A stretch of 64,000 nucleotides of DNA from Candidatus Saccharimonadales bacterium (GCA_050730875.1 JBOHNX010000002.1:92805-156804); one strand, 5' to 3'; shown: positions 2,470 to 59,989, numbered from the stretch's first letter. Made by a program: numbers and translations. Notes: generated by a model not told the origin, from the letters alone.

Positions 2470-2871
2470 CTACTCTGCTGGCTGGGTTGGCGGTGTGTCC
2501 GTTAGCTGCAGACCTTCATCGCCAAGACTTGCATCTTTGAAGTTTCCGTAAGAGTTTAAGTCGTGTATACGACCGTCAAATTCGCGCAAGAACCCGTCAA
2601 TCGTCTCTTTCGTGACTGGGCTGGTCGTGTCATATTTCTTCTGAGCCTCCGGGCGAGTAACAGCATCGCGTTCCCGCTCGTACCCCGGCCGGCTCAAGTC
2701 GAAAATCGCAAACCCAGCCACGTAGTAAATAGTCGTGCTGATAATAGTCATGCCTACGGCGACAAACACAACCAAGCCAAGCGCAAATGGAAGTTTGTGC
2801 TGCTTTATAAACGCTTCCGTGCCTTCTGGCAGATGCAAAAACCGTATAGCTTTACGAAACACTCGCTTCAT
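2470..2871 (-). CDS. hypothetical single-pass membrane protein
   Basis: 133-aa ORF with one TM (LPFALGLVVFVAVGMTIISTTIYYVAGFAIF). Start overlaps the upstream gene's stop by 1 nt. Confidence 0.45.
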   Translation of the reverse strand: MKRVFRKAIRFLHLPEGTEAFIKQHKLPFALGLVVFVAVGMTIISTTIYYVAGFAIFDLSRPGYERERDAVTRPEAQKKYDTTSPVTKETIDGFLREFDGRIHDLNSYGNFKDASLGDEGLQLTDTPPTQPAE

Positions 2872-3413
2872 TACTCTTTCACCCGCGCCGCCGTTGCGTT
2901 TAGTTGTTCGATTTGTGTCCGTAAATCAGTCACGGCTTTACGGTATTCGATTGTCAGTTCCTCTGCCTTGGTGACTTCATTGCCAATCGCCTGGCGGGCC
3001 GAGCGCGTCTGATCTAGCAAAACACCAAAATCAGCCGGTTTCGCCTGACAGTCAGCTTGTATCAGCGCTGTTAGGGTCGCATCGTAATGCAAATAAGCAT
3101 TGCGGAATCGGTCTACTGTGGCTTTTAAATCAACCAACAGACGGTCGTGTCGATCGGCATTTATTTTGTTGTAATGAAGCCGGTCCGAAAAAGCCTCGAG
3201 CTGCGTAACGAGACTCTCGTACCCGCGACCACGGTTATTGCGCGATACCAAATCGCGGCGCTGCTGTTGCTGCAAAAGTCTTTTTAAATTAGTGCAATTG
3301 TCGTGGATTAACGCCGCTCTTTCGGGTGATGTAGCATTTTCGGCATTCACGGCCACTGGCACAAGTAGCAAAAATCCTAAGACGACTACAAAAGCACTTT
3401 TAATGTGGTTCAC
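2871..3413 (-). CDS. hypothetical secreted protein
   Basis: 180 aa. Signal-peptide-like N-terminus MNHIKSAFVVVLGFLLLVPVAVNAEN. The rest is helical and charged. Confidence 0.5.
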   Translation of the reverse strand: MNHIKSAFVVVLGFLLLVPVAVNAENATSPERAALIHDNCTNLKRLLQQQQRRDLVSRNNRGRGYESLVTQLEAFSDRLHYNKINADRHDRLLVDLKATVDRFRNAYLHYDATLTALIQADCQAKPADFGVLLDQTRSARQAIGNEVTKAEELTIEYRKAVTDLRTQIEQLNATAARVKE

Positions 3414-4549: not shown

Positions 4550-6322
4550 CTAGTTAAATTGGAAAAATTCCGGTGTGCCACCCAGCGTCGTCGCTGTGAC
4601 ATCTGTTATTTTTTTCGGCTCGCCACCTTTCACCGATAGGGCAAAATCCGAAGCGCCATTAGCGGTAACGATCCGAAAGACGATGCTGTTACCGACCCAC
4701 CGAACCGGACCCTGCAATCCTGCCACGCCATACAATTGTTCTTCTTTGCCTGAGGCTACATTTTTGAGGATGATGGTATTTTTGTCTTCAATTTTGTCGA
4801 CTAGCAAGCGCCATTGGCCGTCCGCGCTGGTCGAAGCCAGGAACGTACGGTTCGCGCTAGCCGGAACCGACGTATTGATAACCTGAGTCGTATTAAGATT
4901 GTACTCGTGCCAGGCGTTGTCTTCAGTTTGGTACGCCACGCGGTCGTAATCGAGCTGCGTGACTTCCTGTATTTTGTTGCCGATGGTTTTTTCGGTGCCG
5001 CCTTTAACGCTGACTACCCGAAGCTGTGGACTGGTTTCTTGGCCAGGCTTGCCATGCAAAAAGCCAGGGCTGTATACAACTGAGCCCAAGCCAACAGTAG
5101 CTACATCGATGTAATCGGCAGTTGATAGATCGGTGCGTTTGTTTGCAGCAACATCAATACTCGCTAGTTGCTGGATTATTTCTGGCGCTTTTGCGTCGCG
5201 TTCGCCCTTCACGTAGACAAGCGTATCGCCAGACCAGTCGGCAAAATCAAACCAGTTAGCTTCATCCACGGTGGTTAGCTTTTTGGTCTCCAGATTAACT
5301 ATATACAACTTTTGTAGGAGTGTGTTGCGCGCATCACGCACACCTTCACGCGTCGAAGCAAGGACACCATACTTGCCACTGGGGCTCGCGGAAAACACCA
5401 GGTTTGGGGATTCTTTAGCGCTGCCAGCTACAACTTCCGCCGCATCACTGCCATCTAAATTGCTGCTGGAGACCCCGAATGTCCCTGTATGTTTGCTTAT
5501 GAAGTAGTGTTTGCCGGCGGGCACAAAAGCAACTTCTTGCAGTGTATCCGACTGTAGGTTTACTTCAAATTCTTTGTTGAGGTAGCCGCCAAGTTTTGCT
5601 GCAATTTTTATTGTTTTGGCATCGGTTGCCGGAATTTTCAGATTTACCACTCCCTGCTCATCCGACTTTACGACAATATCGCCCACGCTGAATTCGCCGT
5701 TTGTAATCGGCTCATCAGTAAGCCAATCTTTTACCTTAAAGGTAAGTGGCACGCCAACGCTTTTGAGTTTTACATCTTCTTTGTATTCGGTAACTTGTTT
5801 GGTCCCCAACAGGTTTAAGAATGGGTTAAAGTCGAGTGTTTTTTCGAACGTAGCCGTTTCGTAGCCCTGTTTTTCGGCGGTCACGTTCAAGATGCCATAC
5901 GGTTGTGTCAGTGTTATTGTTCCATTTTCGTCTGTCTGATGCGAGGCGCCGTTTATTTTAAGCGTCACATTTTTAAGCAGCGCGCTTGCCTGTCCTTCCT
6001 CGCCTTGTACCTGTGTCGTCAATGTGACTTTAGTCCGCGCACCAAAGAAGTTTACAATCGCCCAGCGGGTTGGGTCGATAAACCAAAGTGTAACTGCGGC
6101 TACCAGTACGATAAATACAAAATATGCCCAGAATTTTTTACTGATGAATATCCGTTTGAGCTTCGCGCCAAAACCCTCTTTAGTTTTCAGCTGGGTTGGT
6201 TCGGGATTGGTGGGAGTTTGTGGATCGTCGGTTTTGGGCAAGCTGTCGACAGCATCGTCGAGCTGACTTTCGACGGCCACAACTTCAGGACTCAGTTCGT
6301 CGTTTTCGAGTTTATTTTCCAT
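4550..6322 (-). CDS. membrane-anchored protein with Ig/carboxypeptidase-regulatory-like and TolB-like beta-propeller regions
   Basis: 590 aa. N-terminal acidic tail, one TM (FWAYFVFIVLVAAVTLWFI), then beta-rich repeats (GKYGVLAS..., LVYVKGE..., WRLLVDK...). Function not recognised. Confidence 0.5.
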   Translation of the reverse strand: MENKLENDELSPEVVAVESQLDDAVDSLPKTDDPQTPTNPEPTQLKTKEGFGAKLKRIFISKKFWAYFVFIVLVAAVTLWFIDPTRWAIVNFFGARTKVTLTTQVQGEEGQASALLKNVTLKINGASHQTDENGTITLTQPYGILNVTAEKQGYETATFEKTLDFNPFLNLLGTKQVTEYKEDVKLKSVGVPLTFKVKDWLTDEPITNGEFSVGDIVVKSDEQGVVNLKIPATDAKTIKIAAKLGGYLNKEFEVNLQSDTLQEVAFVPAGKHYFISKHTGTFGVSSSNLDGSDAAEVVAGSAKESPNLVFSASPSGKYGVLASTREGVRDARNTLLQKLYIVNLETKKLTTVDEANWFDFADWSGDTLVYVKGERDAKAPEIIQQLASIDVAANKRTDLSTADYIDVATVGLGSVVYSPGFLHGKPGQETSPQLRVVSVKGGTEKTIGNKIQEVTQLDYDRVAYQTEDNAWHEYNLNTTQVINTSVPASANRTFLASTSADGQWRLLVDKIEDKNTIILKNVASGKEEQLYGVAGLQGPVRWVGNSIVFRIVTANGASDFALSVKGGEPKKITDVTATTLGGTPEFFQFN

Positions 6323-15911: not shown

Positions 15912-18392
15912 CTACCAGCTGTACAACGCGCCCTCTTCGACGTACATCCAACTTACCTCGAGACTTTTAGCTGCCGCTGCAAGTGTGGTTATGCTGTTAA
16001 CCACTCTCACTCTGTCGCCGCTCGGAGAGTCGGCTATGCGACATACTTCATCACCGTTGATCTTAAATACCGTTTCAGTAAAGGTATAGAAAACTTCAAA
16101 CCTGAATTCCTTTGCTGTAACGGTAACACCTGAATCAACAATTGTTGGGGCGGCGAAAGGCCTCACGACACACTTGAACGTGGTATCACCGGCGCCGGTA
16201 TCATAGCGAAACGCAGCATAGCCACCGCTCGCTGGTTCAGACGACCCGCCCATTGTGGCAATATCTAGGGTGGTAAATCCTAACCAAACACGCCGATCTG
16301 TAGTGCTACCAAAGTATGCATAGGTTTGGTACAGCAGGTAGTCCGAATCGAACGCTCTGTCCCAAGCTACGTTGCTTGATGCACCGGCGACATTACCACT
16401 TGTTGCTGTTGTAGAGTGCTGAATTGCAATACGAGGGATCGTATCTGCTGCGACCGTCCCTGTATTCGTTATGGTTGCCCCGTAGCCTTCCCATGTGGTG
16501 TCGGTTCCGTTTGCCATCTTCATCATGGTTCGGCGAGCATTTGGTCGAGGTGTGCCTGTGCATTCGGTCCATGTACCATCCTCATAGCATCGGTTTCTAC
16601 CGTTCTCACTGTTATAGTACATACCGCCCTTAACAGCCGTAGGATCGCCTATAGTATTTTTGGTATCAAGCACCAATAGAGCCCCCGTAGCATCGGCAGT
16701 TGGGTCGCCAACGTATGCTCGGCTATTTGTTGTATCAATAACAAACAGGGGCACGGATGTGGCGTTGAGCACCCTAAACGACGTAGCTGAATTTGCGGAG
16801 TTTTGGAACGTCGCCGCGCCACCCGAGGCAAGTGTCGCAACAGTAGCCCCGCCTGTGACAAAGTTAATCGCATTGGCATCTGTCGTGCCGATATCCAAAC
16901 TCGCACCGAGGGTATTGCCGCCATCACATACGTAGTTGCTTGTTGCCGAACATGAAGCTTGTGCACCTGTGTTGGTAATAGTCACGGTATTCGTGCCCGA
17001 AAGGCTAATGCCGGCACCCGCAGCGAGCAATGAGCTGAGGTTTTTATATTCCAGAGCAGTGCCGCCACTGTTCACGCCGAGCAGCTGGTTTGCGGTCCCC
17101 AGACTGCTTAGGTTGGTACCGCCGTTTGCAACCGGGAGCACGCCCGTGACCTCGCTGGTAAGCTCTACTGAGCTACCAAGAATCGCCTGAAGCGTCCCAG
17201 CACTTATTGTCAGACCAGTCCCGGTTAAGTCTGTAAACGCATCGCCATTAATGGTAATTGTTTGCCCTGTTGTTATGGTGGCGCCGGCGCCAAATGTCTG
17301 AAGCGCATTCCAAGTATTTGCGTTACTGAGATTAACGGATAAACCTGTCGCGCCTTTGCTCAGCGTTGTACCGTTGAGCTCGAGGCTAAATGTCGTGCCG
17401 ACTAGCTCAATACCATTGCCGTCGGCGGTGTAGGTCGTATTGGTGTCTGCATCCGGTGCGCAAGCCCATTCGCCACTGGTGACCTGCGCTTTCAGAATTT
17501 CACCGCTTGCACAAATGGCGAGGCCAAACTGCGTGCTCGATAGACGCAGCCCACCATTTGTAATCGTTGAGTATGTGGTGTCTGCATCGGGAATAACAAC
17601 GCTGTTGCCGTTCGATATGCTCAAAGTACGAGTTCCGCCGACCCAAGCCAGTGTTTGGGCGTCGGTATCGGTATCGACATCGGACGAACAGACAAATGCG
17701 CTTCCGTTCCATTGCAGTTTGGCTGTACCAGCGCATGTTGGGCTATTAACCGAAAATTCTGTGCCAACAAGCTGCAAGCCGTTGCCTGCAGTGTAGCTCG
17801 TCCCGCCCGCGTCGGCCGCACATGCCCACGAGCCCCCGCTTCGCTTCAAGATTTCTCCATCTGCGCACGATTGCAGACCAACTTTATACGGATCAAGCGA
17901 CGTGCCAGTACCCACGCGCAGCATCCCGCCACCACTTGCAACATCGGTTACCTCATTGCCAACCGTGCCGTCTCCATCAGACGGTAACGCAATGCTATTG
18001 CCGCGCGTAATCGTAAGGATATTGCCAGAAACGCTGAGCGTCTGATTATCCGCCGTGCGCCCGGTGATGTTATAGGTGGGATAAATATTAGTAATGTTTT
18101 GTGTTACCGGACCTTGTTGGTCGGTTGGCGTTGAACTGACAACTTCCTCTATGAGAGCTTTAAGGTCAACCGCCGAGCCTTCGGTACCTGGGATACGCAG
18201 TGTCGTCCCATCAAGTTCAAGGCCAAGGTTTTTTACTGAATGGCCGTTATCGGAGGTGGGGCGAATAAGCAAAAATGCGACGATTAAAATGGCTATAGCT
18301 AATGCAAGCAGAACTGACCCTGCTATAAAAACAAGCCGATGCCGCGGTGCTGTTTGAGCAGCACCTCCAGTCCCTTGGTCCCAATACTCCAT
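15912..18392 (-). CDS. large membrane-anchored surface protein (826 aa), fibre/adhesin-like
   Basis: N-terminal TM (LVFIAGSVLLALAIAILIVAFLLI). Repeated C..GEILK...W.CA.D and G/T/S-rich beta repeats. The C-terminal region shares FRVLN...VDTTN and GGMYYNS..G..RCYE.G.W..C modules with the 2312-aa protein. Confidence 0.75.
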   Translation of the reverse strand: MEYWDQGTGGAAQTAPRHRLVFIAGSVLLALAIAILIVAFLLIRPTSDNGHSVKNLGLELDGTTLRIPGTEGSAVDLKALIEEVVSSTPTDQQGPVTQNITNIYPTYNITGRTADNQTLSVSGNILTITRGNSIALPSDGDGTVGNEVTDVASGGGMLRVGTGTSLDPYKVGLQSCADGEILKRSGGSWACAADAGGTSYTAGNGLQLVGTEFSVNSPTCAGTAKLQWNGSAFVCSSDVDTDTDAQTLAWVGGTRTLSISNGNSVVIPDADTTYSTITNGGLRLSSTQFGLAICASGEILKAQVTSGEWACAPDADTNTTYTADGNGIELVGTTFSLELNGTTLSKGATGLSVNLSNANTWNALQTFGAGATITTGQTITINGDAFTDLTGTGLTISAGTLQAILGSSVELTSEVTGVLPVANGGTNLSSLGTANQLLGVNSGGTALEYKNLSSLLAAGAGISLSGTNTVTITNTGAQASCSATSNYVCDGGNTLGASLDIGTTDANAINFVTGGATVATLASGGAATFQNSANSATSFRVLNATSVPLFVIDTTNSRAYVGDPTADATGALLVLDTKNTIGDPTAVKGGMYYNSENGRNRCYEDGTWTECTGTPRPNARRTMMKMANGTDTTWEGYGATITNTGTVAADTIPRIAIQHSTTATSGNVAGASSNVAWDRAFDSDYLLYQTYAYFGSTTDRRVWLGFTTLDIATMGGSSEPASGGYAAFRYDTGAGDTTFKCVVRPFAAPTIVDSGVTVTAKEFRFEVFYTFTETVFKINGDEVCRIADSPSGDRVRVVNSITTLAAAAKSLEVSWMYVEEGALYSW

Positions 18393-18450
18393 TTTTTCTC
18401 TGTTTTTTAGAATTTTTGTTTTTTACAGAGATCTACTTAACGTTCTTTAC

Positions 18451-18484
18451 TATAACATAAAACGCTCATGGTTCTGGGCGTTTT
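18451..18484 (-). terminator. rho-independent terminator downstream of 18510..18950
   Basis: Minus strand: AACGCCCA-gaacca-UGAGCGUU followed by UUAUGUUAUA. Confidence 0.55.
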
Positions 18485-18509
18485 ATGTTGTGATTTCAAC
18501 TCTTACAAT

Positions 18510-18950
18510 CTAGGGGGATCGTTCTTGCTGCTTTTGATCGTTTTGTTGTTGCGTGTTTTGATCTTTCTCATCGGTTATCGCGATAGGGCCAACATTAATC
18601 AGCTTATTATCCTTTTCGCGATACAAGATAGCTGTTTTTGCATTGGTGTATATCAAAATGTAGTCGCCATCTTCGGCATTTTTAAAAAATGCCTGATCCT
18701 TTAATTTTTCTTTATCTTTCACCTGGGCAACAGTGGGTTGCTCGTCTTTTGGCACAGCATAAACCTTCGATACTTTATCGACAAGGCGCTGTGTGGTTTC
18801 CTCGGCTACCGAATTTGGGTTGTTTCTTAAATTGACATACTGCCAAATAAAATACCCGGCTAGCACTGCAAGCAGTGCAATAATGACGCCCCCTACAATG
18901 AGGAGTATCTTTGTATTTGAACGCTTAAAGTTGCTTCCTACCTCTAACAT
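18510..18950 (-). CDS. hypothetical membrane-anchored protein
   Basis: 146 aa with one N-terminal TM (ILLIVGGVIIALLAVLAGYFIW) and a Q-rich tail. Confidence 0.5.
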   Translation of the reverse strand: MLEVGSNFKRSNTKILLIVGGVIIALLAVLAGYFIWQYVNLRNNPNSVAEETTQRLVDKVSKVYAVPKDEQPTVAQVKDKEKLKDQAFFKNAEDGDYILIYTNAKTAILYREKDNKLINVGPIAITDEKDQNTQQQNDQKQQERSP

Positions 18951-18991
18951 ACCTTACATCTTACGCGAAAGTGCTTAAGCCGGTCAACGTT

Positions 18992-21900
18992 TTAACGTAT
19001 TTGGAGTTCGACAAGGCCAAATTCTGGATCGGCGATGGCATCGCCGGTGATGCCGACAACTCGGAGGAAGACATCACTTTTTGCGCCACCGGTTACAGTA
19101 ACCCAGCTCGAAACCTTGAGGCCGGTAGTATCAATAACCGTTGAAGGACCCGTGCCGCCATCCAGATAATTCCACGTGCTTTGGTCAGTCGAATACTGCA
19201 CACGCAATTCCGAACCCGTGGCCCCAGCCGTTTTGACATTGGCCACGAGGCGAACTTGCGCAGCATCCGAAAGGTCAAACTTGGTGCGTGATGAAGTTTG
19301 GCCAAGGAATTCTGTCAATGCTGCTGGCATATTTGTCCAAATGGCGCCATTCGTACTGTTGAAGTTAGCCGATTCGTTCATGCCTAGGCAATTCTTCCAG
19401 GCACCCCCTTCGTAACAGCGGAATTTGCCAGTATTGGAATTATAGTACATGCCGCCGTTTACGCCGGTTGGGTCGCCCGAAGTGTTTTTGTGGTCGAGAA
19501 TGACCAATGCAGGCGTGCCGTCTGCGCCGACGTCGCCGCCGCCAATCAGAACCCGCATATCGACAGTGTTGACCGTAAATACCGAGGCAGCTGACGAATT
19601 GAGAATACGGAAAGCAGTCGTTGAATTTGTATTGGTCTGGAAAAAGACAACACCGCTTTGGGCAATGTTCATCACTTCGGTACCACCCTTGCGCACACTG
19701 AGGATATCCATGGTCGACGCGGCGTTTTGGTTGATAATCGCCGCAGTACTGGTGGTATTAAGTGCATTCACGTCGAGTGTTGCGCCTGGAGTTATGCTGC
19801 CAATGCCGACGCGTTTGTTTACGGCATCGACACCAAACAGTGCTTGACCAGACGCATCATGGACTTGCAGCACGTTGGTCGAGTCGTTATCGTTTTGGAC
19901 CGCAACCGGTCCCGTGAAGGCAAGTGCGCCAGAATTGAGTTTGCCATCGAAGAACGCGCCAATGTTGCTGGCCTGCACAATTTGCAGCGCATCTATCCAT
20001 ACAGTTCTTGCTGTACCGGTATCGCCGTCTTCAAAATAAAAGTATGGCGTGCCGCTAATAATGCCGGCGGTCGTAAAGGTACATTCGTAGCGAGTCCAAC
20101 CCCCGGTTGCAACGGTTTGGCTGCTCTTGCAATCGGTCTCGCCACCGACCGTGCCGTCTGATGAATAACCAAAACGCATGGTGGTGAGTGTCCCGCTGGA
20201 GAGTTTCGCGTAGAACGATGCTGCATATTGCGTGCTGGCTGTGAGCGTTACGTTATACTGCGCACCGGAGTTGGCACTGCTTGAGCTTGTCAGGGTTTCG
20301 AGCGACGCCTGGCCAACATAGCTTTGGGTTGTTACACGGCCAACCGTGGCGCCACCTTTACCTGCCCAGTTCGTGGAACTGATCTCGATACTACCGTTTG
20401 TTACGAGATCGCTTACGTTATGGATAGTGCTAAGGCTTAGTAGTTGCTGACCGGCAGCGTTCACAACCTGAAGAGCATTCGTAGAGTCAGTCGTGGTCCG
20501 AATGGTCGCCAAACCATTGACCGACAGATTACTATTTACCACTGCCCCATTGCGGAACATGCCTTCGCCACTGACGTGCAGATTACCAGATATGAAAGTG
20601 TTGCCTGCCGTCAAAGTACCGGCAGAACTACCATCTGCCATGCCTTCGCCACTGTAGCCTAGTAGGTCAAGCGACGCGCCAACCTTCACCCGCGTGCCGC
20701 TCGCATACCACACATTGCTTTGCGCACCTGCGTTATAACCGCCTATGGCGTATATGTACCCGTTAATAACAGTCGCGCCCATACCACTCCGTGCAGCCGT
20801 GAGGGCTGTGCTATCGGTCGTCCAACTGCCTACTGAACCATCGTTGTTTAGCGGAGCATAGTGCACCGTGCCAAGCGTCGTGCCAGTGCCGTCTATACCG
20901 CCGAGCACGTACATGTAGCCATTAGCAACTGCCGTCGCAAGACTGTAGCGGGCAGCCGCAATGGCACCGGTGGTTGCCGCAGCGATAGTTCCATCTGCGT
21001 TAATCTTTCCGTAATAGAGCGTACTTTGTGCCGCGGTGCCAGTATTTGTACGGCCACCGGCCACATACAGGTAGCCGTTTGCTATTTGGATACTGCCATT
21101 GTTAACTACTGTCGGCAACCAGCTTGATAATGTTGAAAAGCTACCTATTGTGCCGTCTGAGTTAATGCGCGCGTAGTAGATATTTTGGTTGTTTACACTG
21201 CCGAGCGTTTGACCGCCTATTACGTACAGATAACCGTTGTAGGCGGTCATGGTGTGGTGACGAAGGTCAGTCGGGAGCGTTACGTCGAGGGTGCGCCAGG
21301 AGCTTATGGTACCATCGCGATTTGTACGGCCCATGTAAATATCGTCAGCAGTGCTGGCAGACGACGTACCGCCAGCAACGTATATGTAGCTATCGTAGCG
21401 GGCAAAGCCAGCGTTGCAATTGGTATTTGTTAGCGCAGTTGTGGTACCCCACACTCCAATCGAGCCATCACCGTTAACAGGCGCATACTGGGCAGTGTTC
21501 GTTCGGGCGCCCGCTCCATCGCATCCTCCTAACGCATAGAGGTATCCTTGATGGGCGATAACGCCATGGCTTTCACGAGCACCCGACAGTGAGTTCGCGT
21601 TAGTTGCAAAGGCGGCAATGTGTCCAGTGTTATTGCCAAATAATGACAAGATTGAATCGCTGCTGTTAAGCCCAACGAGCTCTCCGCTTGCTGCGTTTAA
21701 TATACGGAAAGCAGTTGATGAATCAGTGCTGTTTTGGAAGAGTGCCTGACCGGTTGTATTAACTTGCGCAAGAAGAGTTGAACCATTGCCAATCTTCAAT
21801 GGTTGGTCGGGGAAAAGGTTGCCTATTGCAACAAAATTATCTTTTATTTTCAGCCCGTTGGTACCTGCGGTCTCAATACGGAAGTAATCGTTGGTGCTAT

Positions 21901-24900
21901 CCCACTGCAAGTAGCCATTTTGACCAGCCGTGGTAGAATCGCCCAGGATTAAACGCGGGTTGTTGCCATTGTTATAGATTGCGGCATCGCCATCGATTAC
22001 CTCGAATTTCGAAAACGCCGCCGTTCCGCCCACACCAACCCGTTGGTTGGTAGTATCGACGTTAAGGACACTGCTGCCAGTAGCGTTGAGCACGCGCAGC
22101 GCATTGACTGAGTCGGCGGAATTTTGGAAGGCAATCTGGCCCGTGTTGCCAACCCCAAAGAGGATGTTACCAAGGCCAGCACCGTTGCTGGCGCGAACGT
22201 TCAGCAAGTTAGCGCCAATGGTGCTGTTTGCATCCTGAATATCAATGGCCCCCCGTGTTGCATCAAGTTTAATTTCCGGTGTTGTGCCGCCTACCGAGTT
22301 TGTGTATGAGGTTTGCAGCGTGCCGCCAGCGCCGGCACAGTTACCAGTAGAAAGACACACGGTGCCGCTCTCATCAGGGAAGGTAACGGTGCGGTTAGCG
22401 GTTGCCGTAGCAGAAATAAGGGTAATTGCATTGGCGTTCGTGGCGTTAGCAAATACCAGCTTGCCCGACAGAGCACTCGACTCACCCAGCACTAATTGGC
22501 CGTTCGTGGTATCAACCGTCGCAACGCGCGAACCGATACCATTTAGCACACGCAGCGCCGTTGTGCTGTTGGCTGCCTGGAAGGTCGCCGAGCCACTTCC
22601 ATCCAGCACCAACGAGTTAAGTAGCCCGGTTGTTAAGTAAATACCGCTCCAACCAGAAAGCTGCAGTTGGTCCGTATCGGTCGTATTGGCTTCACCAACA
22701 TACACCAACCCGCCGCTCCCAAATTGCAAGCGGCCACCCGCTCCGTTAATGCCGGTTCCGTTAATAATCGTCTGGTTATTGGTTGTGTCGACTGTCAAAA
22801 GAGCATTGCTGGCGGCATTCAGCACCCGCAGCGCCGCTGTAGAATTAGCTGAATTTTGCAGTGTTACCTGGCCCGTGTTGCCGACCCCCAACAAGATATT
22901 GCCCAAGCCCGCTCCATTGCTGGCGCGGATGTTTAGCAGGTTAGCAGCAATCGTCGTGTCAGCATCCTGGATGTCCAATCCAGCCCGGGTGGAGTCAAGT
23001 TTAATTTCTGGCGTTGTACCACCGGCCGCATTATTGTACGCAGTTTGCAACGTCGCCCCAACGCCGGCACAATTGCCACTTGAGGTACAAAGGTCGTAGG
23101 TACCCGCTGTGAGCGCCGGCAGGCGAAGTGTGGTGTTCGCAGTCGGCGCAGTAAACGAAAGCGTCGTCGTATTGGCGCCAGAGGTTGCCGAAAGCGTTGT
23201 ACTAGCACCACCTTGGAGCGTCAGCGTTTGGGTAGTTGCACCAACTGTCAGCGTTCCGCCAGGCGTAATGTTGAGCGCACCACCCGCTGTAATATCGCCA
23301 CCGTTCACTGCTAAGTCGCCCGTTAGCGTCGTATTGCCCGTCACGGCCAGCGTTCCGCCCACGCTGGTATTGCCGCTCGCGCCCACCACGTCGAAGTTTG
23401 TAAAGTCAATATTGCCAGTTGTACCTACAATATTATTGGCGCCAACACTCAAGGCATCGCCAATCTCGGCATCACTGGCGTCAATGCCGGTTGTTATGCC
23501 TCCGGTTGCTGCCTGGATCTTGATGCCGACGGGCACGGCGCGGTTCAGATCTAAATTATCAACCAGCAGTAATTGCGCGGGGTCAGCCAAACCTGTGCCA
23601 TTTGCACGTACAAACGACGTAAAACCAGTGCTGTTATCGGCCGTGGTAATCGTAAAGTTAGGGTCGGTCGTCCAGTCCGCCAAGGTGAGCGTCAGATCGC
23701 GGGCATCGGTAGTAAGGATAGTATTGCCGGCATCGTAGGCCGCCTGCAAAGTGTTTGGTGAGCCAGCCCCAGAGCAGTTACCACTGGTGAGACAAATGGT
23801 ACCGTTCTGGTCTGGCAAAATGTACGTGCGGTTAGCCGTCAGCGCTCCTTGAATAATGGTACCGAGGAACGAAGAGCCGCTGTGGGCAAAGTGAAGCGAA
23901 CCAGTTTGGCTGGCCGCGACACCAATGGTGGCGTCACCTCCTTGGATGATTAAATCGACACTCGTGGTTACACTGGTGCCGTCGTCAGTAATGGTTGAGT
24001 CTGCAATCGTTTGCCCTGCCGTAAATTTGGCTAATCTGTTTGTCGTGCCACCGGGCGTCGTAACACCTCCACCCACACCAGTACAGTTGCCGGCAGTCGT
24101 ACAAATGTCGTAAGTGCCAACACCGGTCGTCAGCAACCGGTATGTCACATTGGCGGTTGGCGCTTGAAACGCCAAAGTAGTGGTATTGGCGCCGCTGGTT
24201 GCGGTCAGTGTTGTTGAACTGTTACCCTGCAGCAATAAGTTCTGGCCGGTAGATCCGACTGTCATGGCGGCGCTTGGCGTAATTGTGTTTGCGTTTAACG
24301 TACCGGTAACGGCTGCTCCCCCGTTTAGGTTGGCTGCACCAGCAACAGCTACCGAACCCGTAAAGTTGGCGGTGCTCGAGATCGTTTGCCCATTAATACT
24401 GCCGCTTACGGTCATATTACCCGCGGGCGTAACGTTCAACCGGCTTACGCCACTTTGCTGTAGGTCGAGCAAGTTACCCGTCGCAGCGCCATTTGTATTA
24501 TTGACGAGCAACATCGGGCTGCTTGCCTGCGAAGATGTAAGTGTTAGCCGACCAAATGTCGGCGCAGCGGTGGTATTAATATCTTGAACCGTATTTACAG
24601 CGCCAGAACTCGCCGTAAAGTTAGTCGCGTTAAAACTAGCGATGCCTTTAGCAACGGTTGACGCATCGTTGATAGTAATCGTGCTCCCTGCACCGCTGGC
24701 GTTCGCAATCGTCAGCGCCCCTGTCAAGCCGTTGACCGAAGTGACACCTGCACTGCTTGGACACGCCGCAAAAGCAGGCGCACCAGCCGTAGACAGCAAA
24801 CAAAGGCCAGCACCCCCGGCGGTTACGGCAGTCAGTGCGCCCGAGCCTTGGCCAACAACCACGCCATTATTTGCGAGCGATGTCGCCCCTGTGCCGCCAC

Positions 24901-34077: not shown

Positions 34078-34683
34078 CTAACGGTAGATAATGGCTAGAC
34101 TTGCTTGGGTACGGATTGTACATGGATGCGTGCGTTGCCATTCCTCAATTGCACGGCGCACACCTGGTAAAGCTTCTGTATGATAATCGTCGACAATAAT
34201 AGTTGCGCCGGGACTCAGCCTTGGCCACACCAGCCGCAAGCTAGCTAAAATCGAGCTATAAAAATCGCCATCTAAAAATGCGAAGCTAATTTGCGATGGC
34301 ACGTCATCTGGGGTGAATTCTTCGAACCAACCCTTATGAATCGTCGGGAGTGGCAAGCCAGCCTGTTTGAAGTGTTTAATTAATTGCGACTTTGTCGCAA
34401 TTAATTCGCCTTGTTTAAACTGCTCGCCGGCCGGACTTTGGTCCTCGCTAGTCTTGGGCGGCAAGCCAGCGAACGAATCGTAGACATGTAATTTTTTATT
34501 TCCGCCATATTGCAAAAGGAGACGCTGTAAAAATAACGAGGTGGTGCCTGCAAAGCAACCAAACTCTACAACGTCGCCTTTTACCTCCTGCTTTAGTACC
34601 TTTTCTAGTTCAAGGAGAATAATTTCGAGTTCTTTAGCGTCGACTTGGTCTGAAACAATCGGGTATGCACGAATTAGATCCAC
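34078..34683 (-). CDS. class I SAM-dependent methyltransferase (TylF/macrocin-O-MT-like)
   Basis: VEFGCFAGTTSLFL (SAM motif I), YDSFAGLP, FAFLDGDFYSSILASL and IIVDDY. Confidence 0.65.
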   Translation of the reverse strand: MDLIRAYPIVSDQVDAKELEIILLELEKVLKQEVKGDVVEFGCFAGTTSLFLQRLLLQYGGNKKLHVYDSFAGLPPKTSEDQSPAGEQFKQGELIATKSQLIKHFKQAGLPLPTIHKGWFEEFTPDDVPSQISFAFLDGDFYSSILASLRLVWPRLSPGATIIVDDYHTEALPGVRRAIEEWQRTHPCTIRTQASLAIIYR

Positions 34684-34692
34684 ACCTCTATT

Positions 34693-34959
34693 CTAAATTC
34701 GTCGGGCGGTTTCATCCAATGTCTTTTCGCTCCACTTGCCTGCTTCTTTTGCTTTGTCGCCCATTTGGCGCAAGATTGTACGAGCTTTGTCTTTGCCTTC
34801 AATAAATTTTTCTTGGCTCCGATGGCGCATTTCGAGCATTCTGCGGCGTATGTCAGCGCGCGTTTCGTGACCACTCTTTGGGGCGAATAGCATGCCAGCG
34901 GCGTAGCCAATACCCGCAGCTAGGACGGTGAAGGTTAGGAGTCGTACTTCTTTGTTCAT
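34693..34959 (-). CDS. YtxH-domain protein
   Basis: 88 aa. AAGIGYAAGMLFAPKSGHETRADIRRR is the YtxH signature. Confidence 0.7.
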   Translation of the reverse strand: MNKEVRLLTFTVLAAGIGYAAGMLFAPKSGHETRADIRRRMLEMRHRSQEKFIEGKDKARTILRQMGDKAKEAGKWSEKTLDETARRI

Positions 34960-34973
34960 AGCTTCTCCTTATA

Positions 34974-35169
34974 GGTGTGGAGAAGACGAGCTTCATATCT
35001 TGCTCGCTCGTAGTTCGCTTCGCTCACCTCGCTCGGCCAAGCATAGATTACATAGACTGCCACTGGCAGTCTATGGGCGCCAGGTTGGCTGGACAATTCC
35101 TTGGAGCTTGTTAAGACGAGCGGGCGCCAGGCGGAAAACCAACTCTGGCGCCGAGGGACCGCACACACC
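34974..35169. repeat. structured intergenic element containing the third copy of the conserved 45-nt core found in the tRNA-Asn modules
   Basis: 35001-35043 (TGCTCGCTCGTAGTTCGCTTCGCTCACCTCGCTCGGCCAAGC) is about 90% identical to 58437-58480. Flanking helices: GGUGUG/CACACC (34974/35164), TAGACTGCC-ACT-GGCAGTCTA (35053-35073) and GGCGCCAG...CTGGCGCC (35123-35152). Confidence 0.5.
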
Positions 35170-35276
35170 TTATTATTGCCCCTCAACTATGAGCTTACTG
35201 ATGCGCCTAAAAAATGAAAATGAAAAATTTCACTTTGTGAATCATTTTATAGACTTAAACATAGTAAACTAAATAT

Positions 35277-35918
35277 ATGGAGGAGTGGCGTCAATTCATC
35301 ACAAAATTCTCGCTCCGGTCCTACCAAAAAGGCCAACTCATCGTTTGCCAGGACACGGTTCCTCCTTATTGTTACGTTGTGCGCAAAGGTTTTGTAAAAA
35401 CCTACCTTATCACTGCCGAAGGGGACGAGAAGCCAATTAGCTTCGAGGGTAAAAACGACATTTTCCCATTTGATGTCGTCTTTGGTCATTCACAAGAAGC
35501 GAAATATTACTACGAGGCCTACACCGATTGCGAGCTGTACCACATTCCGTGCAACGAGTTTATCGCCTTTGTGAAAGTGCACCCTCACCTGTTTACGCGA
35601 TTATTCCACTACCTCATAGACCGTACGCTGGGCTACCACGAACATATTGCCAGCTTAGAGCATGCCAAGGCGGTCGACAAACTACTGTTTGCACTTAATC
35701 TGCTCACCAAACGGTTTGGCAGGCAGGTTGCCCGCAGCCGCTCGCTTATGATGTTGCCCATCACTCAGCAAGACCTTGCTAATTTCCTTGGACTGACGCG
35801 CGAAACAACCGGTACGCAGCTCAAAACGCTCGAGCGTGAGGGTGTACTGCGCTATCATCGGCAAAAATACACTATCTACACTGACCGTCTTCATTCGCTG
35901 CTGGAAGAACGGGGTTAG
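35277..35918 (+). CDS. Crp/Fnr-family transcriptional regulator
   Basis: N-terminal cNMP-binding-like beta-roll and a C-terminal HTH (ITQQDLANFLGLTRETTGTQLKTLEREGVL). Confidence 0.8.
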   Translation: MEEWRQFITKFSLRSYQKGQLIVCQDTVPPYCYVVRKGFVKTYLITAEGDEKPISFEGKNDIFPFDVVFGHSQEAKYYYEAYTDCELYHIPCNEFIAFVKVHPHLFTRLFHYLIDRTLGYHEHIASLEHAKAVDKLLFALNLLTKRFGRQVARSRSLMMLPITQQDLANFLGLTRETTGTQLKTLEREGVLRYHRQKYTIYTDRLHSLLEERG

Positions 35919-58408: not shown

Positions 58409-58585
58409 TGGCTCCGGGGCGGGATTCGTTCGTATTCTGCTCGCTCGTAGTTCGCTAACGCTCACCTCGCTCGGCCAAGCGAGGATTCCTCACAGCGCCA
58501 CTGGCGCTGTTCGACCCATGGTTCGAGTCCTGTCCAAAAAAACATGTGATCTGTCGACGACCTAATGGTCATCACCAAATCACAT
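58409..58585 (-). repeat. tRNA-Asn 3'-end-containing module, copy A (hairpin, U-tract, conserved core, 20-nt tRNA 3' fragment)
   Basis: 58409-58428 is the reverse complement of CGAAUCCCGCCCCGGAGCCA (the tRNA-Asn T-loop to CCA, one C shorter). The core is at 58437-58480. The hairpin 58544-58585 is near-identical to 59874-59915. Confidence 0.7.
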
Positions 58586-58664
58586 GGCTCACCACGATAG
58601 GGCAAGTTATAACCATAATCAAGCACGATCTGACAGGTGTAGCTGTGCTATAGTGATTTAGATC

Positions 58665-59055
58665 ATGGCGAAGCAATCGAAGTACAGCATAGTCATCCCT
58701 GTTGGTATGAAGCCCCGGCCTAAGATACACGAAGAAACAGCAGCCGACATACTGGCTAATCATTTCAAGTGTGATGTGTATTTTATTGAAACCGGCAGTC
58801 ACGGGACACCAGATATATCTATTCAAGGTGTGGAATGGGAAGTGAAGAGTCCTATCGGCAGTAGCAAGAACAATATCCGAAAAAAATATGCGCGAAGCCG
58901 GCACCCAGTCAGTAAACGTAATTATAGATTTACGACGCTCTAAGCTACATCAAACGCGAGCCTTGGGCTATATCAATGAATATATGAACACCTCGAAGAA
59001 GCTCAAGCGCGTCGTGGTCATTACTAAATCTAAACGTATATTGACAATAAAGTAG
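58665..59055 (+). pseudogene. PD-(D/E)XK nuclease-like small protein interrupted by a frameshift in an A7 run
   Basis: Frame 1: ...GTPDISIQGVEWEVKSPIGSSKNNIRK, stopping at 58943. The +1 frame continues coherently from the A7 tract (about 58870-58876): NMREAGTQSVNVIIDLRRSKLHQTRALGYINEY...RILTIK, stopping at 59055. Confidence 0.5.
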
Positions 59056-59155
59056 CACCAAGAGTATAATGATAGGTGTAAAAGACGCATACGGGACTGA
59101 ATCTGACCCAGAGGCGTCTTTTCTTTTTGTCTCGACGATAAACGAACTATTACGT

Positions 59156-59644
59156 CTATCTTACAACTCGCTGGACCTCAAATATTTCCATAATTTTATC
59201 GACAGTTTCGTCGATTGTCATATCAGAATTATCGATTATATAGCCGAAGCTAGGTGATGCAATTCCAGTATCGTAGTGATGCTTTATTCTTGAAACCTCC
59301 CATTCAGACAATTCACGGCCGCCTCTTTTACTTTGGGCTACTTCAAGTCGGGGTGCTAACGTAATAACGACTTTGGGCTGCGTCTCTATTTCTTTTTCAA
59401 AACGATCAAAATCTTTTTGCCTCACCACATAATTAGCCACAACGTCTTTCCCTTGTTTGGTATAGCTATTGATAGTTCGGATTGCTAAGTCCATGGACTT
59501 ATCCAGATCAGTCGCCAAGTTGAAGTTCGGGATTGTGTCGTTGAGATCATCGACATTGATAAAGGCTGCCCCCATACGGTCGGCCAATAACTTTGATGTT
59601 GTCGTTTTACCTGAATTAATACTACCGCTGACGAATATCAACAT
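59156..59644 (-). CDS. P-loop NTPase / small-molecule-kinase-like protein
   Basis: 162 aa. Walker A FVSGSINSGKTTTSKLL. Size and layout resemble shikimate/gluconate-kinase-like AAA proteins. Confidence 0.6.
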   Translation of the reverse strand: MLIFVSGSINSGKTTTSKLLADRMGAAFINVDDLNDTIPNFNLATDLDKSMDLAIRTINSYTKQGKDVVANYVVRQKDFDRFEKEIETQPKVVITLAPRLEVAQSKRGGRELSEWEVSRIKHHYDTGIASPSFGYIIDNSDMTIDETVDKIMEIFEVQRVVR

Positions 59645-59739
59645 TACTTAATAATAGCAAAGTATAGTGGTTTCAATTCTAGTCTGCCTGCATAAAAAGT
59701 CAGAACCAATTACTAGTTCTGACTTCATACATTACGGCT

Positions 59740-59915
59740 TGGCTCCGGGGGCGGGATTCGTTCATATTTTGCTCGCTCCTGATTCGCTTCGCTCATGTCG
59801 CTCGGCCAAGCAAGGATTCTTCGCACTGCCACTGGCAGTGCTCAACCTTCGCTTCAAATCCCGCCAAACAAAAATGTGATCTGCCGACGACCTGAAGGTC
59901 ATCACCAAATCACAT
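59740..59915 (-). repeat. tRNA-Asn 3'-end-containing module, copy B (immediately downstream of the intact tRNA)
   Basis: 59740-59760 is the reverse complement of CGAAUCCCGCCCCCGGAGCCA, identical to the tRNA 3' end. Core at 59768-59812. Hairpin plus U-tract at 59866-59915 acts as the tRNA terminator. Confidence 0.7.
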
Positions 59916-59989
59916 GGCTCCGGGGGCGGGATTCGAACCCGCGACCAATTGATTAACAGTCAACTGCGCTACCGCTGCGCTACCCCGGA
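59915..59989 (-). tRNA. tRNA-Asn (anticodon GUU), CCA encoded
   Basis: Manual cloverleaf: UCCGGGG-UA-GCGC-AGCGGUA-GCGC-A-GUUGA-CUGUUAA-UCAAU-UGGUC-GCGGG-UUCGAAU-CCCGC-CCCCGGA-G-CCA. 75 nt. Confidence 0.9.

Follow-up and report, generated by a model that had tools for sequence, protein, structure and literature searches.

The spacer between the ytxH gene and a Crp/Fnr-type regulator gene of a Candidatus Saccharimonadales bacterium raises a simple question: what is a conserved sequence core, also present elsewhere in the same DNA, doing between these two genes? The stretch concerned covers positions 34974-35169 (196 nt) of a 64,000-nt window, by which we mean the whole length of DNA that was analysed. 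The initial annotation had treated the 196 nt as one helix-rich element and had suggested that its core represents an unclassified RNA or protein-binding motif family present at three loci. When we rechecked the sequence, every feature that it had listed was found in place, and the motif family proved to be real, with at least 13 copies and no match in Rfam. We refer to the conserved unit as element E (~85-95 nt) and to its copies in the window as A, B and C, copy C being the one beside ytxH. We believe that there is about an even chance that copy C is an orphan member, truncated at its right end, of a previously undescribed family of miniature insertion elements that target the T-loops of tRNA and transfer-messenger RNA (tmRNA) genes. 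The family is found in Candidatus Saccharimonadales and in similar metagenomic genomes.

Within the window, the core of copy C (35001-35043) is ~91% identical to positions 58438-58481 of module A, 23.4 kb away (40 of 44 positions, with one indel), in agreement with the match of about 90% noted initially, and 100 shuffles gave no chance match to the 43-mer core at three or fewer mismatches. A 79-nt match joins copy C to module B (59761-59839) at 82% identity. Beyond the window, members were recovered by two independent routes, a DNA pattern scan and a search for spurious open reading frames (ORFs) that read through E. The scan of metagenomes gave 42 matches, five of which had the whole core and the hairpin (L008, L009, L023, L029 and L037). 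For the second route, the conserved DNA contains an open frame that carries the peptide motif 'ARPS.D..CHWQ'; an exhaustive protein profile search found nine proteins below E = 0.001 in 1.84 billion representatives, eight of them likely true, and the contigs of these eight spurious ORFs yielded L052, L054, L055, L056-L058, L059 and L060. The aligned set comprises A, B and C together with ten copies from other metagenomic Saccharimonadales-like loci (L008, L009, L023, L029, L037, L052, L054, L055, L059 and L060). A covariance model (R1), built on eight aligned copies and then applied to all 13, gave scores of 40-94 bits. Loci L056-L058 hold more diverged copies and stand outside this set. Each genome region examined had one to three copies. 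Copy C is 83% identical to the tmRNA-linked copy at L023, and A, B and C are mutually only 79-80% alike.

At the gathering threshold, Rfam 15 matched only tRNA-Asn in the whole window; with E-values up to 10, positions 34900-35300 gave only chance matches to small nucleolar and small RNA families, and L029, L037 and L052 gave tRNA or tmRNA genes, overlapping matches and weak chance matches outside E. R1 detected no additional copy in 164 kb of related DNA, and a scan of species-representative genomes (a set that does not include the source genome) with CGCTCANNTCGCTCGGCCAAGC returned only four chance matches. No E was found in pattern scans of viral contigs or by blastn against phage and plasmid collections. 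A word-indexed search with the peptide profile of the open frame returned one protein only, and a 1574-aa chimera of all translated frames found no match as a query. We found no description of such an element in our literature searches or in Rfam.

For description, we orient E on the strand that reads TGCTCGCTCG (box1). In this orientation, E starts with a weakly conserved left end, T(C/T)AT(A/C)T, and continues with box1, a variable hairpin (P2), a box2 (TCGCTCGGCCAAGC) that is nearly invariant in the 13-copy alignment, a linker that reads ANRGATT or ATGGAAAA (GATT or GAAAA type), a second hairpin (P3) and, in most copies, a conserved right end, TC(G/A)NCC. P2 differs in sequence and length in nearly every copy, and its pairing is kept: GAGC-TAAA-GCTC is replaced by GGGC-TAAA-GCCC, the outer helix GCCT/AGGC by GTTTC/GAAAC, and further forms are CATGCG-AAA-CGCATG and AAAGTGG-AGTA-CCACTTT. 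P3 is paired in 13 of 13 copies, four of its seven pairs are changed on both sides, and its apex, GCC-RCW-GGC, is invariant save two loop positions. The covarying hairpin that had been proposed from three loci thus holds across 13 aligned copies, and P2, which had gone unremarked, covaries as well. A long-range helix (P1), which joins the box1 and box2 regions, is mostly invariant and has one covarying pair (CG in four copies, UA in four and UG in three). The spacing between box1 and box2 ranges from 17 to 26 nt by our own count. We considered and rejected a coding role for E, as the indels between the two boxes come in steps that are not multiples of three and the open frame is a by-product of conserved DNA. 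The 'hypothetical proteins' of 61-144 aa that led us to further loci (P0063-P0068, P0070 and P0071) consist of translated E plus the antisense of the adjacent tRNA or tmRNA gene, and are annotation artefacts.

The targets of E point to mobile DNA. E adjoins a tRNA or tmRNA gene in 12 of the 13 characterised loci, always with the same polarity; copy C, which has no tRNA partner, is the sole exception. The tRNA targets are Asn (twice), Leu-GAG, Leu-CAG, Ala-GGC, Ser-CGA, Ile-GAT, Arg-CCG, Trp and Met, and the tmRNA targets are a gene in L052 (Rfam tmRNA 60.7 bits) and tmRNA-like 3' ends in L023 and L056-L058. At these loci, E replaces T-loop nucleotides ~54-57 of a dispensable gene copy, so placed that its P3 end adjoins the 5' strand of the T-stem and its box1 end adjoins T-loop position 55-58. 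What E interrupts is either a short 3' fragment or a second gene in decay, and the intact gene lies within ~40-170 nt. A dispensable host copy, a fixed polarity and duplications derived from the target together make mobile DNA the dominant signal at these loci.

Most loci share one arrangement, which we call type I (A, B, L008, L009, L037, L023, L052, L055, L059 and L060; Table 1 for A and B). A left flank (L), the reverse complement of target positions 76 to 55-58, is followed by E, CC(N), a turn of 3-5 nt, an inverted target copy (R), a terminator and the intact gene. In B, L008, L009, L052 and L055, L matches the final 19-21 nt of the adjacent gene exactly; in A, L059 and L060 it is one change from an exact match. 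In eight of these ten loci (our own count), CC(N) corresponds, as reverse complement, to the bases that close the T-stem 5' strand. R is a sense-orientation copy of the T-arm on the opposite strand, sometimes reaching CCA, with 76-100% identity to target positions ~51-76. Because the T-loops of tmRNA are asymmetric (GGCAGTA in L052 and L023, GGCAGAA in L056) and are reproduced as such in R, the inversion of R is not an artefact of palindromy. In the type II arrangement (L054 and L029), E is directly followed by the reverse complement of positions 53 to 1 of a mutated second tRNA. At L054 this is a decayed second tRNA-Arg, 36 nt from the intact copy, whose flanks join at T-loop 54/55 with one nucleotide missing; L029 repeats the arrangement with tRNA-Ile and an intact copy nearby. 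The flanks are thus target-derived and differ by locus, the left ones ending in words as different as ATTCG, ACTC, ACTTG, GGTAC and CGAGC, and E is conserved. The same contrast is seen between A and B, where the core is ~80% alike and the L segments and terminators are 91-100% alike, so that the conserved core and the locus-specific flanks must differ in history. The identity pattern among A, B and C fits what separate insertions would be expected to leave. As a separate observation, the reverse strand of L029 has, ~40 nt downstream of tRNA-Ile, a further partial copy of this tRNA (41 nt, from the anticodon loop as far as CCA); it bears the signature of a putative separate integration at an anticodon-loop sublocation, beside the insertion of E.

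How does copy C compare with these loci? Its left end (TTCATATCT) is the same as in A and B, it is without the family right end (TCGCCC and a T-arm copy), and its similarity to the family ends at 35075. The initial annotation had pointed out a direct repeat, AAGACGAGC, present in two copies. By itself, a 9-nt direct repeat within 640 nt is at chance level (~0.8 expected by our own estimate), but AAGACGAGC adjoins a second exact repeat, GGGCGCCAGG, and the two jointly make a 19-mer of which one copy is intact and the other is interrupted by E at 34991/35075. The 28-nt spacer between the split and the intact 19-mer occupies the position held in tRNA-linked members by the inverted target copy and the terminator; the complementarity between the arms of its palindrome is ~59% (our own count) and marginal. 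Judged from sequence, the flanks of copy C appear to repeat the type I logic at a non-tRNA site: a split target, a spacer and an intact target. We also tried, and rejected, two further ideas on this copy. Short collinear words in its flanks match the tmRNA of L023, but the Smith-Waterman scores are within the shuffle range, and a 19-bit minus-strand match that might have been a second, inverted and degenerate core rests on the palindromic P3 and GGCGCC.

In consequence, the proposal that the 196 nt form a single element did not stand. The closing helix, the 10-bp helix, the 8-bp hairpin and the AAGACGAGC repeat occur in no other member; they are features of the local flank or of the duplicated target. 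The closing helix, weak on its own at 6 bp, joins GGTGTG at 34974 to CACACC at 35164, both of which we confirmed, and consists of two of the three copies of CCACACCT, a motif resembling a ribosome-binding site (34679-34690, 34970-34981 and 35162-35169). The 10-bp helix is a 10-nt inverted repeat, GCTCGCTCGT/ACGAGCGGGC, that is 90% complementary and equals box1 against the 19-mer repeat. Positions 35139-35152, in the 8-bp hairpin, have alternative partners, 35123-35130 or 35075-35088, and the minimum-free-energy fold takes the latter. P3, which copy C shares with the family, has 12-nt arms here (CATAGACTGCCA/TGGCAGTCTATG) that are 100% complementary. The 196-nt stretch folds better than shuffled sequences on both strands (z = -4.1 and -3.75); such an excess on both strands is expected from inverted repeats in DNA and therefore gives no strand information.

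Table 1. Positions of copy C, modules A and B and associated features in the window
Feature	Position	Strand	Support and remarks
Element E, copy C	34992..35074	.	R1 92.9 bits; alignments; right-end-truncated
Copy C, left end			TTCATATCT
Copy C, box1	35001-35010		TGCTCGCTCG
Copy C, P2	35011-35028		variable
Copy C, box2	35029-35042		TCGCTCGGCCAAGC; followed by ATAGATT
Copy C, P3	35051-35075		hairpin
Left half of split 19-mer	34983..34991	+	AAGACGAGC; abuts left end of E
Right half of split 19-mer	35075..35084	+	GGGCGCCAGG; abuts P3
Spacer, split to intact 19-mer	35085..35112	+	28 nt; weak imperfect palindrome with start of intact copy
Intact 19-mer	35113..35131	+	AAGACGAGCGGGCGCCAGG
Local 8-bp hairpin	35123..35152	.	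GGCGCCAG-n14-CTGGCGCC; part of intact target region; locus-specific
ytxH	34693..34959	-	Pfam YtxH E = 1.3e-12
Module A	58409..58585	.	R1 92.7 bits
L of module A	58409-58428		reverse complement of tRNA-Asn positions 57-76, 1-nt deletion
E of module A	58429-58516		P3 at 58492-58510
R of module A	58520-58535		inverted T-arm copy
Terminator hairpin of module A	58544-58585		then TGGCTC
Module B	59740..59914	.	R1 91.6 bits
Second terminator	59694-59725		just outside L of module B
L of module B	59740-59760		exact reverse complement of final 21 nt of tRNA-Asn
E of module B	59761-59847		P3 at 59823-59841
R of module B	59853-59865
tRNA terminator hairpin of module B	59875-59914
tRNA-Asn (GTT)	59915..59989	-	intact target of A and B; ARAGORN; Rfam tRNA 74 bits

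The conservation of box2 and of the P3 apex among distant genomes, and the covariation of P2 and P3, could also be those of an RNA. E might be a structured small RNA or cis-acting RNA that is useful to the host and is made from the tRNA-sense strand, by read-through or within a leader; in the case of copy C this would mean a regulatory 5' leader for ytxH-TylF, in which the alternative pairings of 35139-35152 and of the GGCGCC segments would act as a switch. The tRNA-sense strand is favoured by minimum free energy in eight of nine copies, the G-U pairs in P2 of three subtypes (L008, L055 and the A/B/C type) are valid on this strand only, and a terminator follows L on it in B, L008, L052 and L060. 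The outer U-G pairs of P1, however, are valid on the opposite strand only (eight of 13 copies at one pair). Because these strand cues conflict, we leave the strand open, as had been done initially; the structure may act as RNA, as single-stranded DNA or as a protein site. We consider an RNA of this kind rather unlikely. No promoter-like site was found in or beside E, and in the tRNA-linked copies a terminator stands between E and the tRNA promoter. Neighbouring genes differ at every locus, the protein genes around E being unrelated from one to the next, and only copy C precedes ytxH, the others lying beside tRNA or tmRNA genes, which is not the distribution of a riboswitch or leader. The flanks are target duplications, needless for an RNA gene, and the helices specific to copy C are shared by no other member. 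A selected closing helix between L and R, or a mimic of a tRNA minihelix, was also examined and found unsupported, as L and R do not pair in A and their duplex energies are without strand bias.

A second alternative arises from the partial gene copies. Integration classically leaves one complete gene and a partial copy of its 3' end (PMC9897764). Integrases are known to use the T-loop as a sublocation, and a single subfamily of them can use different tRNAs (bioRxiv 10.1101/2020.11.02.365908). The modules may on these grounds be decayed attachment-site remnants of tyrosine-integrase islands at the T-loop sublocation, in the manner of cis-mobilizable elements (CIMEs), with E as an attachment-site arm and L as the displaced tRNA 3' end (attR). 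The likeness extends to the direct partial 3'-end copy, which runs from the T-loop to CCA, to the use of tmRNA and many tRNAs as targets, to the terminator after each 3'-end copy, with terminators on both sides as for attL and attR, and to tandem accretion with accessory genes between the repeats (58409-59914), where the modules of the window enclose a zeta-toxin-like kinase and a frameshifted nuclease-like ORF. At L060, a SMODS cyclase (2479-3411) lies on the L side of the element, and a sister contig of L054 has a caspase-like peptidase and a faint PycTM match ~4.5-5 kb from the element, on a side that is not confirmed; small defence islands may adjoin the tRNA-linked copies.

We nonetheless regard island remnants as unlikely. 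The direct repeat of a gene's 3' part is present at a known sublocation, but an integrase or an interval of island size is not: no integrase lies between or beside the repeats at any locus, the whole 'island' is mostly ~150 nt, and the same minimal decay at nine different tRNAs would be improbable. Reciprocal site-specific recombination does not produce an extra inverted T-arm copy, nor two plain insertions into decayed full-length genes (L054 and L029). Additionally, the conserved part of E consists of covarying hairpins, which suggest a folded strand and not double-stranded arm sites, and the distance between its boxes varies. The one large serine recombinase is at L056, where tandem modules (5930-6215; also in L057 and L058) stand beside a tmRNA-like gene; it is a 518-aa Resolvase-domain protein encoded 3.5 kb off, beyond a cluster of four tRNAs. 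In L056-L058, a perfect repeat of ~95 nt comprises the P3-proximal part, the inverted T-arm copy, the terminator and a 17-nt copy of the 3' end, and the core between the repeats is strongly diverged. Across the 13 loci, no recombinase was found between or beside the repeats.

The T-loop is also home to introns. Group I introns occupy the tmRNA T-loop (PMC11915505) and are frequent in Patescibacteria tRNA genes, though there in the anticodon loop (PMC13011429). E resembles the introns of the tmRNA TΨC-loop in using the same few T-loop nucleotides, in its fixed polarity, which is that of the host gene at all loci, and as a structured nucleic acid that has invaded many lineages. A relationship is nevertheless highly improbable. 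E is without a catalytic core, and Rfam Intron_gpI was unmatched even at an E-value of 10. At ~90 nt, E is less than half the size of these introns (~293 bp on average for those reported in T-loops), and it ends in A, not in the 3'-terminal G expected. The copies that it interrupts are non-functional fragments or pseudogenes beside an intact gene, and they carry target duplications.

Returning to the insertion element, we have a proposal for how E might move. E would be non-autonomous mobile DNA that is mobilised by an enzyme acting in trans. The T-arm may be recognised by its shape, a hairpin with an exposed loop, and not by a fixed word, because the left flanks end in different words and the T-loops of tmRNA differ from those of tRNA. 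A folded single strand, with P2, P3 and the invariant apex, could be the handle for a trans-encoded nuclease or recombinase. The direct and inverted duplications might be left by repair at the hairpins of the T-arm and the terminator, through fold-back or template switching, or they might reflect selection for events that leave an intact gene. Copy C would have arrived at its non-tRNA site together with ytxH or beside it. The limits of L, exactly CCA at one end and the T-loop at the other, also fit a copying of the mature tRNA 3' end. We considered a 19-22-nt copy made by a reverse transcriptase that stops in the T-loop; the end points, 55-58, match no single modification stop. We likewise considered whether E acts like a guide RNA, in the manner of TnpB, IscB or the IS110 bridge RNA, with the guide of 20 nt supplied by L, and no partner protein was seen at any locus. 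In its boldest form, our proposal is that E represents a new kind of prokaryotic mobile element, which targets the loop shape of the T-arm, has no integrase of its own, is transferred either as a folded single strand or via an RNA copy, and by its very insertion and repair leaves a direct and inverted partial duplication of the target, the same signature being present at copy C; this we hold to be doubtful.

Several points weigh against an insertion element. None of the copies has a transposase, integrase or nuclease linked to it, which leaves the mobilising activity hypothetical, and no pair of otherwise identical filled and empty sites was found, so that the boundaries are drawn from the duplications. 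E has neither terminal inverted repeats nor conserved termini, and the 6-11 nt from L to box1 vary. The family is small (five true metagenome matches, eight likely true proteins and one to three copies per region). Template-switch correction can give compensatory changes in DNA palindromes without selection, and an RNA useful to the host would likewise account for box2 and the P3 apex being conserved in distant genomes. Finally, copy C is not in a T-loop and may have had a history unlike that of the others.

Among known small elements, E can be compared with palindrome-associated elements derived from insertion sequences (IS) of the IS200/IS605 group, REPINs and integron attC cassettes, all of them hairpin-dependent mobile DNA that moves as a single strand. 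It shares with them a small size, the lack of coding capacity and of terminal inverted repeats, a presumed mobilisation in trans, internal hairpins with kept structure and variable sequence, and a strand-specific orientation in the target. Unlike IS200/IS605 elements, E has no fixed target word of 4-5 nt at its left end, though the P2 and P3 hairpins are present. Unlike integron attC sites, it has no R'/R'' core sites, and no GTTRRRY or RYYYAAC was seen at its ends when the alignment was inspected by eye. None of these systems makes direct and inverted target duplications as long as those of E (19-22 nt), and no TnpA, RAYT or IntI gene was seen at E loci. Miniature inverted-repeat transposable elements resemble E in being ~100 nt long and non-coding, in having several diverged copies per genome and in causing assembly breaks. 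They differ in that the inverted repeats around E are target-derived and locus-specific, that its duplication measures 19-22 nt compared with 2-10 nt, and that its copy number is very low.

The tRNA-Asn locus gives the clearest view of the modules in the window. In tRNA-sense order, B reads tRNA, terminator hairpin, R, P3, core, L and second terminator; A has the same arrangement 1.3 kb from B, and a promoter-like site (11/12) lies upstream of tRNA-Asn at 60028-60001 on the minus strand. The interval between A and B holds a small ORF on the plus strand (58665-59057) with a frameshift in an A-run, a weak CdiA-CT-like match (E = 5.5e-4) and an E-V-K motif, and, on the minus strand (59156-59644), a 162-aa P-loop kinase with a Zeta_toxin match just above the cut-off, for which a database look-up gave no exact match. 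From its predicted content, the interval resembles a very small islet of accessory or toxin genes beside tRNA-Asn. Its plus strand carries, between the pseudogene that resembles a nuclease and the gene of the zeta-like kinase, a perfect 12/12 sigma-70-type promoter, TTGACA-18-TATAAT (59041-59070); a hairpin with a T-run (59080-59128) begins no more than 10 nt beyond it. Positions 59041-59128 look like a stand-alone small-RNA gene of ~50 nt, whose product could be an RNA of the antitoxin type. A contig assembled independently from the same sample, and apparently from the same population (L053, a Logan SRR27067773 contig), stops inside module B, at the equivalent of ~59819, as expected if the element is repeated or polymorphic there. 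Elsewhere in the window, a 236-nt direct repeat (22116-22351 and 22848-23083, 73% identity, 732 nt apart) and a five-copy family of 50-nt repeats (16759-22861) are probably repeated domains in coding sequence, unrelated to E.

Does copy C serve the genes beside it? It sits in a 317-nt spacer between ytxH, on the minus strand, and the Crp/Fnr gene (35277-35918). In relatives whose Crp is 70-73% identical, TylF lies directly upstream of crp with a spacer of 81-95 nt (L048, L049 and L051), or a different gene is beside crp (L050), and both ytxH and E are absent from the TylF-crp spacers compared; ytxH and copy C, which here lie between TylF and crp, are thus lineage-specific DNA. The copies of the CCACACCT motif at 34679-34690, 34970-34981 and 35162-35174 read CCACACCT(C)TAT and contain AGGTG, which resembles a ribosome-binding site. 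The first two form a 12-nt inverted repeat that exactly flanks ytxH, the outer two are direct repeats that enclose ytxH and copy C, and the motif copies may mark the ends of a lineage-specific insertion. Near crp, the motif ATGAAAtATTTCAC is retained in relatives. Upstream of crp (35220-35240), ATGAAAAATTTCAC overlaps with TCACTTTGTGA, and ATGAAATATTTCAC, a probable autoregulatory Crp/Fnr site, is at the same place in L048, L050 and L051. Should transcription of ytxH start in the AT-rich stretch near crp, the ytxH leader would contain both copy C and the GGCGCC segments, and the alternative pairing predicted for 35139-35152 could affect ytxH expression. Copy C would be at most part of the ytxH 5' leader at present. 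A dedicated role as regulator of ytxH or crp is unlikely, since no other copy of E lies beside such genes and the spacers of relatives are without ytxH and E, and we would not advise annotating the 196 nt as a ytxH/crp regulator without expression data.

tRNA and tmRNA genes are classic landing pads of integrases, and the tmRNA T-loop also hosts group I introns. If our interpretation is correct, a non-coding element of ~90 nt in the T-loop of at least nine tRNA species and of tmRNA would be a third kind of occupant, one with conserved hairpins of its own that leaves a characteristic direct and inverted duplication. In practical terms, E yields partial tRNA copies, spurious ORFs in public databases and broken assemblies. 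The family would also provide a handle on the movement of DNA in Saccharibacteria and other Patescibacteria, a group with few genetic tools and little-known mobile elements.

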